Counted from the first letter of the stretch, positions 15,833 to 26,030 are shown. The stretch is 64,000 nucleotides of DNA from Acidobacteriota bacterium (GCA_040755995.1 JBFMAF010000040.1:64001-128000), one strand, 5' to 3'. A program made the numbers and translations. Notes: generated from the letters alone by a model not told the origin.

Positions 15833-16700
15833 AGATCGTATGAGGCGCTCGGGGTCTTTCAGAACAAGCAGTTCGAGCTGTCAGGCGAAGGGGCCGCGGC
15901 CCTGGCGCGCCGCGTCGAGGACGGCTATTCGCCGGAGCTGAAGCAGGCGCTCGCCGGCGCAACTCTCGGCATGCCAACGAATCCGCTGCAGAAGGTGATC
16001 ACGGGGGAAGTGCGCGCACCGCTGCTGATCTTGCTGGGTGCGGTCGGACTGGTGCTCTTGATCGGCTGCGCCAACGTCGCCAATCTGCCGCTGGCCCGCG
16101 CCGCTGCCAGGCGCCGGGAGATGGCGATTCGCGGGGCCTTGGGCGCAAGCCCGGTCCGAATCGTGCGGCAGGTTCTGGCCGAGGGGCTCCTTCTGGCGCT
16201 CATCGGCGGCACAGCCGGTGTGCTCCTGGCTGCCTGGGCCATGAGGTTCCTCATCGCGTTGATCCCGAGCAGCGTCCCGCGCAGCCACGCGATCGCGATC
16301 GACCCTACGGTGCTTCTCTATTCGCTGCTCATCTCGGTGCTGACCGCGCTCATTTTCGGAGTGGCTCCGAGTCTCGGGGCGGCCAAGGTGGACCTGCGCG
16401 AGGCAATCCAGGAGGGTGGCCGGAGTGGCGGGGCGTCGCGTGGGAGACGGCGACTGCAGTCGGCCTTCGTCGTAGCCCAGGTCGCGCTCGCCCTCGTGCT
16501 GCTCTGCGGCTCCGGTCTCCTGATCCGCAGCTTCAACGCCCTCATGTCAACCGATCCGGGGTTCAAGGCCGCAGCGGTGCTCACGTTCTCAACCTCGGTG
16601 CCGCTCTCGGACTACACCGAAACGGCGCGGGTCAAAGCATTCTACCTGCAGGGGATCGAACGGCTGGCGGCGCTGCCTGGAGTGAGGGCGGTCGCGGCGT
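15833..16700 (+). pseudogene. Fragmented ADOP/MacB-FtsX-type ABC permease
   Basis: LLILLGAVGLVLLIGCANVANL...RRREMAIRGALGAS...LVLLCGSGLLIRSFNALMSTDPGF. An in-frame N-terminal scrap, RSYEALGVFQNKQFELSGEG, starts at 15833. The true N-terminus and second half are missing. Confidence 0.8.
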
Positions 16701-17304
16701 GCGATTGCTGGCCGCGAGCACCGATACCGGCGGGGTTCACACAGCCCGTGAAATCTGAAGTGCCGGCGTTGCTGCTCAACCGAGCACTGGACCCGGTCAC
16801 CGGGCCCGAGATGGCGAGGCGGGCCGCGCGCCATCTCCCCAACAGCCTCGTTGTTATCGTGCCGGAGGGATCGCACTGGTTCGCGGGAATGACCAACTAC
16901 CAGTGCATCAACACCCTGATGACGAAGTTCGTCGAACAGGGATCGATCAAGGAGCTTGATGCGAGCTGCGTTGCAACGGTCAAGCGGGTGCCGTTCACGC
17001 TTGAGACACCGCAACTGGCCGTTGTCAGGATTCCCGACACGGAGATGCAGAAGTATGCGGGCAGGTATAAGGGCGAGAACGCGCCGTTCGAAGTCGGACT
17101 GGACATTGTGAAGGACAAGCTGCGGCTGACGATGCCGGACGGCAGCGAGATGCTGCTGGCTCCAGTATCGCCCACCCGCTTCCGACTCGTGGGTGCGCGC
17201 CGGGCCTCTCCCTCGACTTCGAATTCGACGGCGACTCAGTCAAGCGCGTCACCATGGCAGAGGGCACACCCGACGAGCTGTCGCTGGTGCCGGCCGGGAA
17301 GTAG
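16700..17304 (+). pseudogene. C-terminal fragment of an alpha/beta hydrolase (TAP-like) with a DUF3471-like tail, frameshifted near 17198
   Basis: CDCWPRAPIP...VPALLLNRALDPVTG...IVPEGSH...CINTLMTKFV...LDASCV, then KYAGRY...LAPVSPTRF. A plausible natural end, PGLSLDFEFDGDSVKRVTMAEGTPDELSLVPAGK*, lies in another frame (TAG 17302-04). The nucleophile GxSxG region is absent. Confidence 0.7.
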
Positions 17305-17755
17305 CAGAAGCCGCTCCGTGGCGCTGACGCTGATGGCGCGCGGCGAGAAGGATGCATCGCCCGTCTACATTCAGCTCCACAGACCCGACGAGATCAGATC
17401 CACGGTGAGACAACAGCCCGCGCGCGGGAGCACTGCTTCGCCGCTCACTTGGCGCATCGAGCTCGCCAGGATCGATCGGTAGCACTGAACGCCGGTTTCC
17501 TTGTCGGGTGGACCCTGATCCGGCGCTAACGTCCCAACATGCTGAAGACCCTGGCCGGCGAGAAGGTGGCAGGTGCGAGGCGCCGAGGAGCGAGGAGCGC
17601 AGCGTACGCGCTGGTACGTGAGCACCGCAGCGACGAAGGCAACGAAGCAGATGCCGCCTTATCGCCGGATCAGGGGTGGACCGGTCAGCGCGACATGCGC
17701 TATGATCCGGTCTATCGAGAGGATCAGCGTCCGCCCGGGTGTGAAGCGCAACGAG

Positions 17756-20768: not shown

Positions 20769-21410
20769 ATGGAGGAGAAGATGATGACGGCGCACGCGGC
20801 GGTGCGGGTTCTGGTCGCTGACGATCATCCCGTTGTACGGGCCGGAATTGTCTCAGCGATCGCGTCCCAGTCAGACTTGAGGGTCGTGGGAGAGGCGGGG
20901 ACCGGCGAAGAGGTGGTGCGGTTGTTCCGTGAACTTCGACCCGACGTCACCCTGGTCGACCTGAACATGCCCGGCCAAGGCGGGATCTCGGCAATCGAGG
21001 CGATTCGCAAGGAGGCGCCGCGCGCCCGCATCATCGTGCTCACGGTGTGCGACGGAGATGAGGACATCCGCCGCGCGCTCGATGCCGGCGCGCAGGGTTA
21101 TCTGCTGAAGGACGTCACCGCCGAGAAGCTCCTGGCCGCCGTGCGATCGGTTCACGCCGGGTTCCGTGAGGTCTCCGAGGCCGTTCAGAGCCGTCTGGCC
21201 GAGCCTCCGGCGGAACTGACGGACCGCGAGCTGGAGGTGCTCCAGCTCATCGCCAAGGGGTTCACCAACAAGGAAACCGGCAAGCTCCTGGGCGTGTCCG
21301 AGGGCACGATCAAGACCCACGTCGTCCACATCCTGGCGAAGCTCGAAGCGAGCGACCGGACCGAGGCGGTCATGGTGGCCATGCAGAGGGGAATACTCCA
21401 CCAGTCCTGA
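20769..21410 (+). CDS. NarL/LuxR family response regulator (cognate of the adjacent kinase)
   Basis: VLVADDHPVVRAG, DLNMP, GYLLKD, LTDRELEVLQLIAKGFTNKE...EGTIKTHV. Confidence 0.95.
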   Translation: MEEKMMTAHAAVRVLVADDHPVVRAGIVSAIASQSDLRVVGEAGTGEEVVRLFRELRPDVTLVDLNMPGQGGISAIEAIRKEAPRARIIVLTVCDGDEDIRRALDAGAQGYLLKDVTAEKLLAAVRSVHAGFREVSEAVQSRLAEPPAELTDRELEVLQLIAKGFTNKETGKLLGVSEGTIKTHVVHILAKLEASDRTEAVMVAMQRGILHQS

Positions 21411-21476: not shown

Positions 21477-24400
21477 CTATCTCGGGGCCATGCTCAGTAG
21501 CGGTACGAGTCTTTCCAGAGTGGAGTCGCCGCCATGCGTATATGATCCGCCGTCGAGAGCGATGCGGAAACCGTGGTCGGCGAAGAGCAGCAGCGGCTTG
21601 CTTTGATCCAGGCGCTTCCTTACGCCGCCAAGAGCCAGGCGCAGCTCGGCCGCCGCTATCCGAACCAGATCCTCGAACGGCGGGAATCGCCGGTGCAGCA
21701 GCTGGTCCACCGCGTCGATCTTGACGAAGGAGCGTACGTGCCCGGACTCGATCAGCGTGCGGTAGCAAGCGTCCGTGGTGGTCTCGCTCGACACCATCGC
21801 GTAGGAATCCGTCGCAACACGCCATGCAGCCAGCACTTCCTCAATGCTGCTCCGCAGCTCGGCGAAGAGAGGCAAGCCCAGGCAATCGACCATGATCCAC
21901 TGGGACTCCGTGTGCTGCCGTAGCGCCTCGGCGAGGCCCGGCGGCTGCGGCCGCAGCTCTGTGCGCGCCAGTGCATCCAGCCGCTCCAGCCAGCGCTGCG
22001 GCGCAACGCGCAGCATGCGATGGTGCTGGCGATAGAGCGCCGCTGCCACCGAGCGCAGCCGCTCGGCCGTGCCGGCCTCCTGCGGCCGCACAAGATCGAC
22101 CGCTGCGGCGACCAGCGGCGAGCCGCTCCTGGACGGTGCCGGTCCCAGCCTGCCGTCCAGCAGCCACCGCAGAATCTGCTCCTCCGCGCTCTCATCGAAC
22201 CCCAGCTGCTCCAGACGGCTCAACGACTCGGCCGAGACCCACTCCGGCTGCAGATGCTCTCCGATTCGCTTGCGCATGTCAGCGCCCAGGCCCTTCGGGA
22301 GAGGCACTCCGTGGCGCAGCGACTGCTCGGCGCACCACAGGGCGATCTCATCCGGCTCGGCGCCGGACCGGCGCTTCAGCCTGATGCGCGCAGCCTCGAT
22401 GCGTCCCAGCTCGCGCTCAATGGCGGCTGCGAGCTCGGCGCGTTCCCACGTGGCGCCGCACAGCGGCTCCAGCAGAGCCTCCACCTCCACCTGCGCGACT
22501 AGTGAGACTCCGCCGAGGAGCTGGTCGAGCAGATCCAGATCGTCGATCTCCGGATAATCCGCCCGGTTTTCGAGGTAGGCAGATGTTCTAGGGTTCACCT
22601 CCACCCACTCTTTCCTCAGCCGTTCCCTGACGGACTCCTGCCCGAAGAACAGCGTGAGCGTCGATTCGATCTTCTCGCGCAGCGTCTCGAATGCGCGCAT
22701 CTCCTCCGCAATCGGCGCTCTCTCTCCGTCGAACCCGCACGGGCAGACGGGCTGGAAGTCGAGGTTCACGAGGCCGCGGCAGCGGAGCGCCCGTGCGCGA
22801 TCGCGACACGCCTGCATCTGCTTCAGCTCCGCTTCGAGCGCCACGTGCCGGCTCCGCACCACCTTGGGCGGGTCCCATTCCCAGATAGCGTGTCCCTTTC
22901 CCCACCAGTCCGCATGCAGGCGGGCGTAGCTGGTCTTGTGATCCTCGTAGATGGCGTGTGCTCGCGCGAGCCACTGGTCCACCTCGCTCATGTTGTCCAG
23001 GCCGGGAGGCGGTCCAAGCGCCTCGACCCTGGAACCGAGATCGAGGGCGCGACACGATGCCAGGGCCGGGTGTCCGAGTAGGTGGCTGAATCGCTGAAGC
23101 TCGGCCAGTATCTTCTCGATGCGTTCCGGCGCGCCCTCGAGCTCGTCGCACAGCGACACGAAGAGCTCCGCCGTGCCCGCCTCGTACAAGAACTGCTGGA
23201 ATCCCTGAAGCTCACTATCTCCGGCCTCCAATGAATTCCAGAGGCGGACCACTCTGGCGAGCTTCTCGGAGAGCGCGGCGGCCCCTGGCGCCTGGGCGAT
23301 CTTGAGGAGCGCCTGTTGGAGGCGCGTGCTCTCGCGATGCCCTGCCTCGCGCAGCTGCCGCACCGCGTTGCGCTGGCCGATGACCGTCCATTGCGCGGGC
23401 ACACGGGCGCCGAACCTCTTGCACAGCTTCTCCAGCTCCCTCAGCTGTTCCACACTCAGGGCACGGCCGGGCACGATCCTGTCGTACTGGATTGGAGTGG
23501 GGAGCGCTTCGAAAAGCTCGCGATAGGACTGCCGGTCTTTCAGGATATCGATATCGCCCTGGAGCAGAAGGAAAATGAGCAGCAGGTGGATCTGGTCCGG
23601 CACGAGCCCGTATACGGGGCTCGCGAGGTGCTCGTAAACGACTTTCGGGGCAGGGTGGTGCTCGAGCAGCGGCCTCAACAGGCTCACCAGCTCGTTTCGC
23701 TCCAGGTGGGCGGGCAGCGCGTAGTTGCGGCCTTTTCGCTGCAGGAGCCCCATCGGCGCGAGATAAGCCTCGCGTATGAGCTTCACGAACTCGTCGGCCT
23801 CGTACTCGCCGGGATCATGCTGTGCCGACCAGCGCATGAACCGGCGGTATGCCTCGTTGGCCAGCGGGCCGTAGCCCGGAGCGAAACGTTCGAACGCCGG
23901 GTAGTACCGGCGCAGGACGTATTGGCCGTACTTCGCGAGCCACGATTGCGCCGATCCGGACGTGTCGATGCGCAGAGGGCCCTCGGGTTCGCCGGCCGGA
24001 CCGGCGACGCGTGCCTCGAGGTAGACGCTGCTGAGCCTGGAGCGGAAGAGCGCGAGGCGCGGCGACATGCGCCGCTCGAGCCTCGACGCGACATCCCCGC
24101 CGGCCACCTTGCCGCGAAGCCGCGCCATTGCTGCAAGCTCCACCAGCTCCTCTCCGATCTCCATCCGCTCGGGGATGAGCGTGTAGCACCCCGGCGCCGG
24201 CTCCGCCTCGCCCCACGGCAGACGAATGCAAAGCGCAGGCCCCTCGCGGGCCGGCGGCTGGCCATCGCCAAAGTAGACCTGGATCGTCCGATCGTGGAAA
24301 TGCCAGCGAATCATCCGCGGCTGCCACTCATCCCGGGCCAGCGCGAACGGGTTGAAACCGGTCTCGCCGAGAAATGGGATGATCCCCTCGAAGACGATCT

Positions 24401-25754
24401 CGCCTCGACCCTGCAGCTCCGCGATCTCCCGTTGGAGCATCTTTTCAAGGTCTTCCTCGCCTCGATCCTCCAGATTCAGCGAATAGGCGTCACCTTGCTG
24501 TTGCACGTAGCGGCCCTTCTGGACGAGCGATCGCAGGATGTTCTCGACGACCTTGACGTTCTTGGCGGGGTCGGTGAGCGCGACCGTCGCGAGCAGCAAC
24601 GAGGCCGCTTCTGCCGCGCTGAATCCATCACGCGACGGCGACATGTGCGCAAGCATCAGGAGCTTGATGACGCGCCACGCGAGGGTTCTCTGAGGCTCCG
24701 TTGAGAATATCTCGGCGATGTGGATTCGGTAGTACGGGAACAGCCGCTGTGCCAGCGGCAGGAACTCCGGCTGCGTTTCCAGAGTGTCCTGGAAGTGATC
24801 CACTATGAAATCCGGTGTCAGCAAGCTGCCCCACGGCTTGTCCAGGAACGGAGCAGATCGTCGCGCCGGGTCGCCGCGAAGTTGCGTCACGACGAAATCG
24901 ACGACACCGCGCGCCTGGGAGAAGCGGTCCCGCACTTCGGCGAGCAGATCGAGGGTGGCGGGATGAAGGGGATAGGTCGAAGCGAGAGCCTGGAGGTCGA
25001 CTTTGACGTTGCCAGGCATGGCGGCGCGCAGGCGCGACAGCAGCTCGCCGACGGCCTCGTCGTAGCCCGGCTTCTTGATCAGTATGCTCTGGCTGATGAG
25101 ATCTCTCACGTGCGCCGGCGTCAACAGCAGGCGCACGGGAAAGCGGTCCTTGATCTTGCGGAACAGATCGTACTCCAGGTCTCCGGTGTGCTCGATCTGC
25201 TCCTGCATGGCCGCGAGGACCCAGAACCGATTTCCAAGCGCCCACTCGCCGGTGAACTGCAGGAACCGGACGTCCTCGTTGAAACTCTCGCGCGTGGGTT
25301 TGGATCGCAGGAACTCGGAGAGCTCGTCGAGGATGAGAAGCACCGTCCGATTCTGTTGAAAGGACGACCACGCGATGCGCCGATCCTCTCGACCTGTGGC
25401 GATTCCCAGCGCGCGCCCGATGATATCTTCGATGCGGGTGTCGGAGCTGAAGTTGAGCAGCGAAATGGCCGCTACTTCCGGCGCGCTCTCGACGAACTCT
25501 CCCGAGCATATCTTCTGCGCTATGTACGCAAGGAAGTGCGACTTGCCTGATCCATATTGACCGATCAGGAAGACGCCGGAACCAGCGGATCTGCCGAGCA
25601 GTTCCTGCATCACGCGCAAGTGCGCTCCGACTTCGCCGGTGACGAAGTAGTTCTCCGTGATCCAGCCGGCGCGATCGGTCTGCAAATCATCAAGGCGAAC
25701 TACCGTCGGCCGCGGGATCACATCCACCAGATCGCGTATGCTCGCCGGCTTCAT
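21477..25754 (-). CDS. BREX BrxC-like (DUF6079-type) P-loop ATPase fused to a C-terminal PglZ-like alkaline-phosphatase-fold domain
   Basis: Walker A GQYGSGKS (25539-62), Walker B LLILDELSEFL, KIKDRF, YPLHP, cysteine cluster CRGLVNLDFQPVCPCGF. The C-terminal about 170 aa carry IMVDCLG, FADHGF and HGGDSTLERLVP, which match the PglZ motifs. Confidence 0.8.
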   Translation of the reverse strand: MKPASIRDLVDVIPRPTVVRLDDLQTDRAGWITENYFVTGEVGAHLRVMQELLGRSAGSGVFLIGQYGSGKSHFLAYIAQKICSGEFVESAPEVAAISLLNFSSDTRIEDIIGRALGIATGREDRRIAWSSFQQNRTVLLILDELSEFLRSKPTRESFNEDVRFLQFTGEWALGNRFWVLAAMQEQIEHTGDLEYDLFRKIKDRFPVRLLLTPAHVRDLISQSILIKKPGYDEAVGELLSRLRAAMPGNVKVDLQALASTYPLHPATLDLLAEVRDRFSQARGVVDFVVTQLRGDPARRSAPFLDKPWGSLLTPDFIVDHFQDTLETQPEFLPLAQRLFPYYRIHIAEIFSTEPQRTLAWRVIKLLMLAHMSPSRDGFSAAEAASLLLATVALTDPAKNVKVVENILRSLVQKGRYVQQQGDAYSLNLEDRGEEDLEKMLQREIAELQGRGEIVFEGIIPFLGETGFNPFALARDEWQPRMIRWHFHDRTIQVYFGDGQPPAREGPALCIRLPWGEAEPAPGCYTLIPERMEIGEELVELAAMARLRGKVAGGDVASRLERRMSPRLALFRSRLSSVYLEARVAGPAGEPEGPLRIDTSGSAQSWLAKYGQYVLRRYYPAFERFAPGYGPLANEAYRRFMRWSAQHDPGEYEADEFVKLIREAYLAPMGLLQRKGRNYALPAHLERNELVSLLRPLLEHHPAPKVVYEHLASPVYGLVPDQIHLLLIFLLLQGDIDILKDRQSYRELFEALPTPIQYDRIVPGRALSVEQLRELEKLCKRFGARVPAQWTVIGQRNAVRQLREAGHRESTRLQQALLKIAQAPGAAALSEKLARVVRLWNSLEAGDSELQGFQQFLYEAGTAELFVSLCDELEGAPERIEKILAELQRFSHLLGHPALASCRALDLGSRVEALGPPPGLDNMSEVDQWLARAHAIYEDHKTSYARLHADWWGKGHAIWEWDPPKVVRSRHVALEAELKQMQACRDRARALRCRGLVNLDFQPVCPCGFDGERAPIAEEMRAFETLREKIESTLTLFFGQESVRERLRKEWVEVNPRTSAYLENRADYPEIDDLDLLDQLLGGVSLVAQVEVEALLEPLCGATWERAELAAAIERELGRIEAARIRLKRRSGAEPDEIALWCAEQSLRHGVPLPKGLGADMRKRIGEHLQPEWVSAESLSRLEQLGFDESAEEQILRWLLDGRLGPAPSRSGSPLVAAAVDLVRPQEAGTAERLRSVAAALYRQHHRMLRVAPQRWLERLDALARTELRPQPPGLAEALRQHTESQWIMVDCLGLPLFAELRSSIEEVLAAWRVATDSYAMVSSETTTDACYRTLIESGHVRSFVKIDAVDQLLHRRFPPFEDLVRIAAAELRLALGGVRKRLDQSKPLLLFADHGFRIALDGGSYTHGGDSTLERLVPLLSMAPR

Positions 25755-25770
25755 GCGTCAGAATCTATCA
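25755..25770 (-). promoter_or_regulatory. Extended -10 element (TGaTAGATT) 7 nt before the ATPase-PglZ ATG; probable leaderless transcript
   Basis: Minus strand reads TG-A-TAGATT-ctgacgc-ATG; no Shine-Dalgarno sequence. Confidence 0.5.
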
Positions 25771-25986: not shown

Positions 25987-26030
25987 GACTCGTTGAGTCT
26001 GTTGTCGACTCATGACGTGCTGTATAGAAT
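25987..26030 (+). promoter_or_regulatory. Promoter of the TPR gene with overlapping inverted repeats
   Basis: TTGTCG (26002-07), 17 nt, TAGAAT (26025-30). TGAGTC-N7-GACTCA (25994-26012) brackets the -35; GACTC-gtt-GAGTC (25987-99) lies just upstream. Confidence 0.55.

Follow-up and report, generated by a model that had tools for sequence, protein, structure and literature searches.

A 64,000-nucleotide stretch of DNA from an Acidobacteriota bacterium (GCA_040755995.1, JBFMAF010000040.1:64001-128000; hereafter the window) carries a gene in which a BrxC-like ATPase is joined to a PglZ-derived core in a single chain, next to a divergent gene encoding a tetratricopeptide repeat (TPR) protein. Sequence comparisons and structure models identify the two genes as a methyltransferase-free offshoot of the bacteriophage exclusion (BREX) systems. 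Their architecture and near-obligate partnership are direct observations, which we hold with high confidence. By analogy with BREX enzymes, the fusion is probably an active nuclease gated by ATP and DNA. A role in defence is a more tentative proposal, and we are equally guarded about the reading that we favour, namely that of a TPR-controlled, ATP/DNA-gated nuclease working independently of methylation, probably against invading DNA.

The fusion protein and its TPR partner

The original prediction described one open reading frame (ORF) of 1425 residues with a set of diagnostic motifs, and all of these are present in the translation: GQYGSGKS (65-72), LLILDELSEFL, KIKDRF (200-205), YPLHP, CRGLVNLDFQPVCPCGF (992-1008), VDCLG, ADHGF and HGGDSTLERLVP. 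Of 8000 candidates scored in a protein search, 377 reached E<=0.001, and 118 of the 119 homologues listed are 1386-1480 residues long, with 44-55% identity; by such comparison the ORF and its motifs are not a chance occurrence. The gene is single-copy in the source genome (7.7 Mb, rated 99.8% complete), and a sister group of more distant relatives shows the same fusion in 1530-1830 residues. Among the 150 best representative hits, all 55 longer than 1290 residues carry the ATPase and none is a natural TPR-fused form; three longer hits (1675-1783 residues) have N-terminal extensions without a partner domain and resemble over-extended calls. No case of a natural split or of a free capless PglZ emerged, the 21 short hits lying mostly on contigs below 4.1 kb, and the split copy in locus L027 reflects a TAG at a conserved Trp position. 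A search of the ESM Atlas yielded only unnamed DUF6079 clusters and generic TPR clusters. In L041 (4148-4390) and L052 (2702-2911), the first ~45 codons of the fusion recur as a short second copy ahead of the intact gene, a pattern that insertion of an element into the 5' end, with duplication of that end, would produce; the L041 copy and the intact gene are separated by a type II methyltransferase.

The fusion had been taken to stand alone, a reading that its neighbourhood and co-occurrence pattern rule out, the TPR gene being a near-constant second component. It adjoins the fusion in all 18 GTDB loci and, once 17 of 98 loci belonging to the sister group had been set aside and near-copies among the other 81 merged, in 61 of 67 distinct loci (60 divergent, one convergent). 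Four of the six loci without it are cut close to the gene, L041 has no downstream sequence, and L044 shows no TPR gene within 3.1 kb upstream and 4.0 kb downstream. In family f42, where 12 of 51 genomes have the fusion, the TPR gene occurs in 11 of these carriers and in 0 of the 39 other genomes, the twelfth carrier being represented by a genome only 78% complete. Of 15 sister-group loci examined, 13 have a homologous TPR gene upstream in the same orientation, with full-length homology to the partner of the fusion (hhalign 99.5%), and in genus g228 it follows the fusion; overall, the link is kept across four gene arrangements. Across 34 loci, pairwise identities of the fusion rise with those of the TPR protein (Spearman 0.82), which shared ancestry alone could yield. 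TPR proteins commonly bind proteins.

Two loci have other genes beside or between this pair. In L028 (7559-9649), an IS4-family transposase with a DruA-like N-terminal domain is inserted between the TPR and fusion genes. In L008 (15-2979), phage-like genes ending with a probable integrase lie immediately beyond the TPR gene and are absent from the near-identical L016, so that integration may occur at the end of the TPR gene.

The N-terminal part (residues 1 to ~1130) matches DUF6079/BrxC by profile and by fold, as had been expected. Pfam finds DUF6079 above its cut-off (E 4e-19) and the BrxC models of PADLOC match; the 74.9 bits for NCBIfam BREX_BrxC fall short of the cut-off of 400, which the type-3 BrxC proteins examined do not reach either, and the DUF499 model gives 13.8 bits, with 1200 required. 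With the AlphaFold2 model of residues 1-1140 (pLDDT 85.8, pTM 0.47), the seven best Foldseek rows are all BrxC, and in structure comparison residues 4-427 match BrxC 9zll_D best (Z 21.8, root-mean-square deviation (rmsd) 4.9, 390 aligned), with ORC/Cdc6 proteins next; these fold searches essentially cover residues up to 430 and barely test the region beyond. Walker A K71, Walker B D143/E144, the arginine fingers K200/R204 and R282, the last a probable sensor 2, are all present in 120 of 120 sequences. E144, K200 and R204 align with E269, K326 and R330 of the Acinetobacter BrxC (BrxC-Aci), given as its Walker B residue and arginine fingers, respectively (PMC13326643, available text).

Residues ~431-765 include many conserved Arg and Lys and are probably DNA-binding, by analogy with the equivalent region of BrxC, which binds DNA (PMC13326643, available text). 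Further along, H947, C992, C1004 and C1006, each in 120 of 120 sequences and invariant across both clades, probably bind zinc; a three-Cys motif stands at the equivalent place in four of five type-3 BrxC. The secondary structure of the model follows the published BrxC plan and ends with a strand-helix-helix-strand unit (residues ~1085-1128) that would resemble the C-terminal dimerisation subdomain of BrxC. In a 29-row tree, for which the tool gave a long-branch warning, the fusion family is monophyletic (100/100) and groups on the type-3 side, away from BrxC of types 1 and 6, and on these sequence grounds the N-terminal part is nearest to the type-3/DUF6079 BrxC lineage.

For the C-terminus, the predicted PglZ fold stood and the domain does model as such, but its extent had to be revised: the PglZ-derived piece spans ~295 residues (a helical linker plus a ~145-residue core), not the last 170 alone. 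Pfam PglZ (PF08665) gives no hit in the fusion and matches 4 of 49 family members (best E 6e-6), and in a profile search with the last 300 residues the seven best PDB rows are PorX and BREX PglZ chains (E 0.003-0.045). The model of these 300 residues (pLDDT 94.5) has its best fold match among 48,161 chains in PorX (Z 12.7, rmsd 10.0, 241 aligned); it aligns with residues 286-753 of BREX PglZ 9zn5_D (Z 11.4, rmsd 4.7, 253 aligned) and scores Z 8.0 with 9nv3_C, level with ENPP enzymes, and Foldseek agrees with the PorX/PglZ ranking. Since the alignment to 9zn5_D is confined to residues 286-753, the fused piece comprises the PglZ linker and core without the N-terminal BrxB-binding domain; BrxB binds residues 1-98 of PglZ (PMC13326643, available text).

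D1290, T1327, D1350, H1354, D1393, H1394 and H1407 correspond to PorX D239, T272, D361, H365, D415, H416 and H500, the metal and nucleophile residues listed in the available text of PMC9757075. Of 120 sequences, one of them partial, 118 have T1327 and 119 have each of the six other residues, and from these near-invariant catalytic residues a two-metal phosphodiesterase core is predicted to be intact. The beta-rich cap between DHG and HGG is absent from this core: the spacer measures 11 residues in 118 of 119 fusion homologues and 12-19 in seven of eight sister proteins, against 65-75 in four BREX PglZ that have the cap.

That the fusion lacks a BREX methyltransferase and other BREX genes was borne out well beyond the window. 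Our 21 BREX query proteins covered types 1, 3 and 6; many were named by NCBIfam, those for BrxA, BrxB and the type-3 methyltransferase by position, and type-2 PglX and the type-4 modifying gene BrxP were not among them. By tblastn they gave no hit elsewhere in the window and none in 89 loci (1.16 Mb; 40 loci of at least 15 kb), with 9 of 9 control loci hit, and the homologues are not located in complete BREX operons. Seven type-1/3/6 methyltransferase queries found nothing in the 89 loci; the methyltransferases seen there, each in a single locus, were a type I HsdM in L015 and a type II enzyme in L041. Neither the brxF, pglXI and separate pglZ of BREX type 3 nor BrxA- or BrxB/BrxF-like genes, which evolve fast, were found there; on clustering of the neighbours, the TPR gene was the sole recurring small gene, and no recurring methyltransferase pointed to a DUF499-type BR gene set.

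In the source genome, a comparison with 31 BREX-locus proteins gave one BREX operon, of type 1 and complete, on contig C33. It encodes a BrxC (732 bits) and a PglZ (887 bits) of its own besides PglX-like and BrxL proteins and is therefore not a partner pglX operon lacking brxC and pglZ; no such operon was found in the genome. The C33 BrxC is far from the fusion in the BrxC tree, and the 6 genomes of f42 (of 51) that encode canonical BrxC include none of the 12 fusion carriers. A genome search with Pfam PglZ (positive in 3 of 22 carriers) missed the C33 PglZ, so its negatives are weak and were not used. The C33 operon (G000:C33:76782-89978, L127) consists of brxA-like, brxB-like, brxC, pglX-like, pglZ type B and brxL genes, and a similar methionine-synthase-like C-terminal sequence on both flanks suggests insertion with partial duplication.

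Distribution, descent and possible functions

The module is widespread, in Acidobacteriota, Planctomycetota, Pseudomonadota and others, and at the same time patchy, with strong hits of both clades in 6 of 401 genomes of the phylum, and with 12 of 51 genomes in f42, 5 of 30 in one genus and 3 of 15 in f47. Flanking genes differ within one genus. Broken copies occur: the G249 copy is interrupted by an insertion sequence (IS), the G417 copy is frameshifted and the L027 copy has a stop; sequencing errors may account for some of these. At the G249 locus (L118, G249:C13:60000-79999), the remaining parts of the IS-interrupted sister-clade fusion lie nearby in opposite orientation and the TPR gene appears intact. 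In the fusion tree, the f42 copies form one clade and those of genus g145 another, and the source-genome copy pairs with the other genome of family f1 (support 1.0). Fusion identities correlate with those of Mfd (Spearman 0.76) and ValS (0.72); within f42 the correlations are weaker, at 0.42 and a non-significant 0.25, respectively. An old, mostly vertical and often lost module fits these sequence patterns best, with possible transfer among close kin.

We propose that the BrxC part would bind double-stranded DNA, oligomerise with ATP and position the PglZ core, which would nick or cut DNA without sequence specificity. These steps are taken from BREX biochemistry: BrxC binds double-stranded DNA with ATP and oligomerises on it, with BrxB bridging BrxC to PglZ (PMC13326643, available text), and BREX PglZ is an endonuclease that cuts regardless of sequence or methylation and is inhibited by NTPs and dNTPs (10.1101/2025.03.26.645558, available text). 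The covalent fusion would dispense with the BrxB bridge, and loss of the cap would leave the active site open to a polymer. With less assurance, since no methyl mark distinguishes self from non-self, the nuclease would have to be gated, and the TPR protein may be a fixed regulatory subunit, inhibitor or adaptor that acts as a first lock; the nucleotide state could be the second. The trigger for release could be some conserved signature of infection, be it a protein of the invader, aberrant replication intermediates or depletion of NTPs; once released, the nuclease would cut the DNA of the invader or kill the infected cell. In support of defence, BREX proteins are among the top folds for both halves and the catalytic residues are near-invariant, and by its patchy presence, broken copies and changing flanks the module resembles accessory defence genes.

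Several observations weigh against this proposal. The window is not a defence island: the Pfam matches of 30 other ORFs in it are signalling, metabolic and secreted proteins, and most neighbours of fusion loci are housekeeping genes. The Mfd and ValS trees (13 and 12 carriers) recover the same well-supported groups as the fusion tree, and the GC content of the fusion tracks that of its flanks and host (r 0.97; 31 loci, 36-74% GC). Mobile carriage was rejected, as the viral, plasmid and phage collections IMG/VR, PLSDB and INPHARED contain no copy. In two genome pairs, the ratio of nonsynonymous to synonymous divergence (dN/dS) of every part of the module (ATPase, middle, PglZ and TPR) lies between 0.08 and 0.15, like the 0.09-0.10 of mfd and valS; such slow evolution of the TPR protein argues against an arms-race sensor. 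Finally, the cap contacts nucleotide substrates in PorX (PMC9757075, available text), so that its loss could change or lower activity. The original prediction had offered defence or repurposing, and the evolutionary pattern gives the non-defence alternative real weight.

This alternative would make the module a domesticated genome-maintenance device, in which the TPR protein serves as a subunit or adaptor of an ATP-gated nuclease that acts on host DNA (stalled forks, ends or protein-DNA adducts). In layout only (ATPase head, long stalk, zinc site, phosphoesterase), it would parallel SbcCD/Mre11-Rad50, the folds being different. We regard it as a close rival of defence, if a less likely one. 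Descent is mostly vertical: between G452 and G289 the synonymous divergence (dS) of the fusion is 1.29, compared with 1.28 for valS and 1.46 for mfd, and the between-class identity of the fusion (43-49%) is like that of Mfd; by contrast, type-3 BrxC from four families have short branches (0.09-0.37). The host-like GC content and the extended -10 elements, present in 28 of 59 intergenic spacers against 13.4 by chance, also agree with it, as do the helicases beside the module: one SNF2 family adjoins the fusion in 6 of 78 loci, and RecQ is found in three sister loci: L092 has it between the TPR and fusion genes, L096 immediately upstream, and L094 two genes downstream. However, the module is missing from 39 of the 51 genomes of its carrier family f42, helicases are also usual partners in BREX-related defence, and between G452 and G454 the dS of the fusion (0.15) is half that of the markers (0.32), so that some exchange within the genus is possible. 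SNF2 was rejected as a third core component, its f42 profile (7 of 12 carriers, 14 of 39 others) showing no co-occurrence. SOS control was likewise rejected, LexA-type boxes occurring in 0-1 of 59 spacers, no more than chance, with three box types that we assumed as search patterns. A narrower version is slightly less probable: the module would be a long-resident, largely vertical host-DNA-processing machine, for instance working with RecQ/SNF2 at stalled forks or protein-blocked ends, and would combine an ORC/Cdc6-type loader, a zinc-tipped stalk and an open-site nuclease. If true, this version would make an immune system the source of a new accessory pathway of repair, and the target of BREX on phage DNA would then seem to be a replication or repair intermediate.

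A signalling or de-modifying enzyme, whose PglZ core would cleave cyclic or linear oligonucleotides or strip nucleotidyl groups from TPR-delivered proteins under control of the ATPase, seems improbable to us. PorX is the top profile and fold match of the C-terminal part, and both PorX (PMC9757075, available text) and BREX PglZ cleave cyclic oligoadenylates; the scores of the two are close, however, and the fusion lacks the cap through which PorX contacts small nucleotides. The protein-binding habit of TPR proteins would suit delivery of a target, but a 1130-residue DNA-binding-type ATPase with conserved basic surfaces would be left unexplained, and no recurring cyclase or CRISPR neighbour was seen at the fusion loci. 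Very improbable, and largely refuted, is a displaced piece of a BREX operon that is decaying or acts in trans with a methyltransferase elsewhere. The pglX-bearing operon on C33 and the broken homologues could be taken in its favour; yet that operon is self-sufficient in BrxC and PglZ, its BrxC is distant from the fusion, no f42 carrier has canonical BrxC, no BREX gene lies in the 89 loci, and a dN/dS of about 0.1 indicates purifying selection instead of a relic.

Relation to known systems

With BrxC of type-3 BREX (Pfam DUF6079, PF19557; PDB 9zll, 9zdx), the fusion shares an ORC/Cdc6-clade AAA+ domain with Walker A/B and arginine fingers, the domain order (winged helix, alpha+beta domain, winged helix, stalk, terminal subdomain), the three-Cys motif and the side of the tree; it differs by its own clade, a shorter ATPase domain, a C-terminal PglZ and loci in which no brxF, pglXI, pglZ or brxA neighbour was found. 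With BREX PglZ (BrxZ; PDB 9zn5, 9nv3) it has in common the alkaline-phosphatase fold, the helical linker and the D-T-D-H-D-H-H set, but neither the cap nor the C-terminal beta-sandwich. ATPase and PglZ also meet in one assembly in the BrxC:BrxB:PglZ core complex (PMC13326643, available text), where BrxB makes the bridge that a covalent link replaces here. PorX (PDB 7pv7, 8thp; PMC9757075, available text) shares the PglZ-domain fold and the seven catalytic residues, whereas the fusion has no receiver domain and no cap and carries an AAA+ ATPase.

BR types 1-3 (DUF499), BRC and MANTIS/Gao_RL also use a BrxC-like ATPase outside canonical BREX (PMC12839542; 10.64898/2026.09.23.753747; available text of both), and a reduced PglZ is shared by BR type 3 and BRC (PMC12839542). 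As described in these texts, BR and MANTIS keep a methyltransferase and a helicase, unlike the fusion module; BRC has seven components with HerA/FtsK, unlike a two-gene module; and in BR type 3 the PglZ is encoded separately and retains its cap, unlike the fused capless core. Unassigned hits were discarded in that survey, according to the available text of PMC12839542, and the term TPR is absent from its main text.

Avs/STAND NTPases combine a TPR sensor, an NTPase switch and a nuclease effector, the same logic as we propose for the fusion and its TPR partner, but here the NTPase belongs to another clade (top folds BrxC and ORC/Cdc6), the effector is a different one and the TPR protein is a separate, slowly evolving gene product.

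The module would work like a BrxC:PglZ core and yet is not a BREX system: no modifying gene and no BrxA or BrxB was found at its loci, and it does not fit the BR definitions either. It is apparently undescribed, no account of a BrxC-PglZ/TPR module having been found in the literature searched, although the supplement of PMC12839542 or Goldfarb 2015 could mention the fusion. NCBIfam cut-offs and the Pfam PglZ model miss it. There is as yet no settled account of how BREX blocks phage replication, and systems of six genes that depend on a methyltransferase make it difficult to tell apart what BrxC and PglZ each do; a natural reduction to two genes, with ATPase and nuclease in one chain, makes the coupling between them directly testable. 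Should the module defend, the BREX core could work without any self mark and would have to use another trigger; should it not, it would be a case of an immune machine turned to housekeeping.

Features of the window and other observations

Features of the fusion and TPR genes and their surroundings, in window coordinates
Feature	Position	Strand	Basis or remark
BrxC-PglZ fusion gene, 1425 residues	21477..25754	minus	single unbroken 1425-codon ORF
ORC/Cdc6-clade AAA+ ATPase and first winged helix (residues 1-430)	24465..25754	minus	model match to BrxC
Alpha+beta domain and winged helices (residues ~431-765)	23460..24464	minus	secondary structure of model
Helical/coiled-coil stalk (residues ~766-1040)	22635..23459	minus	secondary structure of model
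Probable Cys3His zinc site (H947, C992, C1004, C1006)	22737..22916	minus	conservation
Strand-helix-helix-strand subdomain (residues ~1085-1128)	22371..22502	minus	model compared with described BrxC
PglZ-derived helical linker (residues ~1130-1281)	21912..22367	minus	300-residue model compared with BREX PglZ
Capless PglZ/alkaline-phosphatase core (residues ~1282-1425), ~145 residues	21480..21911	minus	fold and conserved residues
Extended -10-like element TGaTAGATT	25762..25770	minus	TAGATT preceded by TG; ends 7 nt 5' of the fusion ATG
LuxR-type response regulator gene	20769-21410	plus	downstream of fusion, convergent
TPR partner gene, dedicated, 324 residues	26062..27036	plus	divergent from fusion; Pfam TPR
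Sigma70-like consensus match upstream of TPR gene	26002..26030	plus	weak: 1 found, 0.9 expected by chance

The monocistronic appearance of the fusion gene was confirmed by the position of its -10-like element and the orientation of both neighbours. An element so near the ATG makes a leaderless transcript possible, and 16 of 57 homologous loci have a TAnnnT 4-10 nt 5' of the start, against a mean of 5.9 and a maximum of 13 in shuffled sequences.

Among the nearest neighbours of the fusion loci, 98 of 106 were scanned, the 8 dropped being module parts, antisense frames or genes already scanned. Thirteen of the 98 are toxin-antitoxin, restriction-modification or IS genes, a count that leans towards defence but, made without a background control, does not show enrichment; DUF5615 and DUF2442 neighbours are taken by us as toxin-antitoxin genes. 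Of 144 further neighbours, 22 of them hand-picked, PADLOC matched 13 at E<=1e-25, none of them BREX and several generic. The RecQ proteins in L092 (6595-15109) and L096 (183-4028), both of the sister clade, are ~790 residues long with a long insertion, and in L094 (10515-13001) RecQ is accompanied by a probable SRAP gene, presumed from its motif, downstream of the sister-clade fusion.

Elsewhere in the source genome, a helicase, an SNF2 gene (DrmD-like, below cut-off) and a methyltransferase-like gene stand in a row at G000:C10:11149-23220 (L130), possibly a DISARM-like locus. An SNF2 helicase gene (DrmD-like, below cut-off) lies near an SMC/ABC-like ATPase gene at G000:C39:5963-13532 (L129) and may be a defence remnant. 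Within the window, a 503-residue ORF on the plus strand (15971-17482) joins a piece of an FtsX-type permease to a piece of a TAP-like hydrolase and looks chimeric or rearranged.

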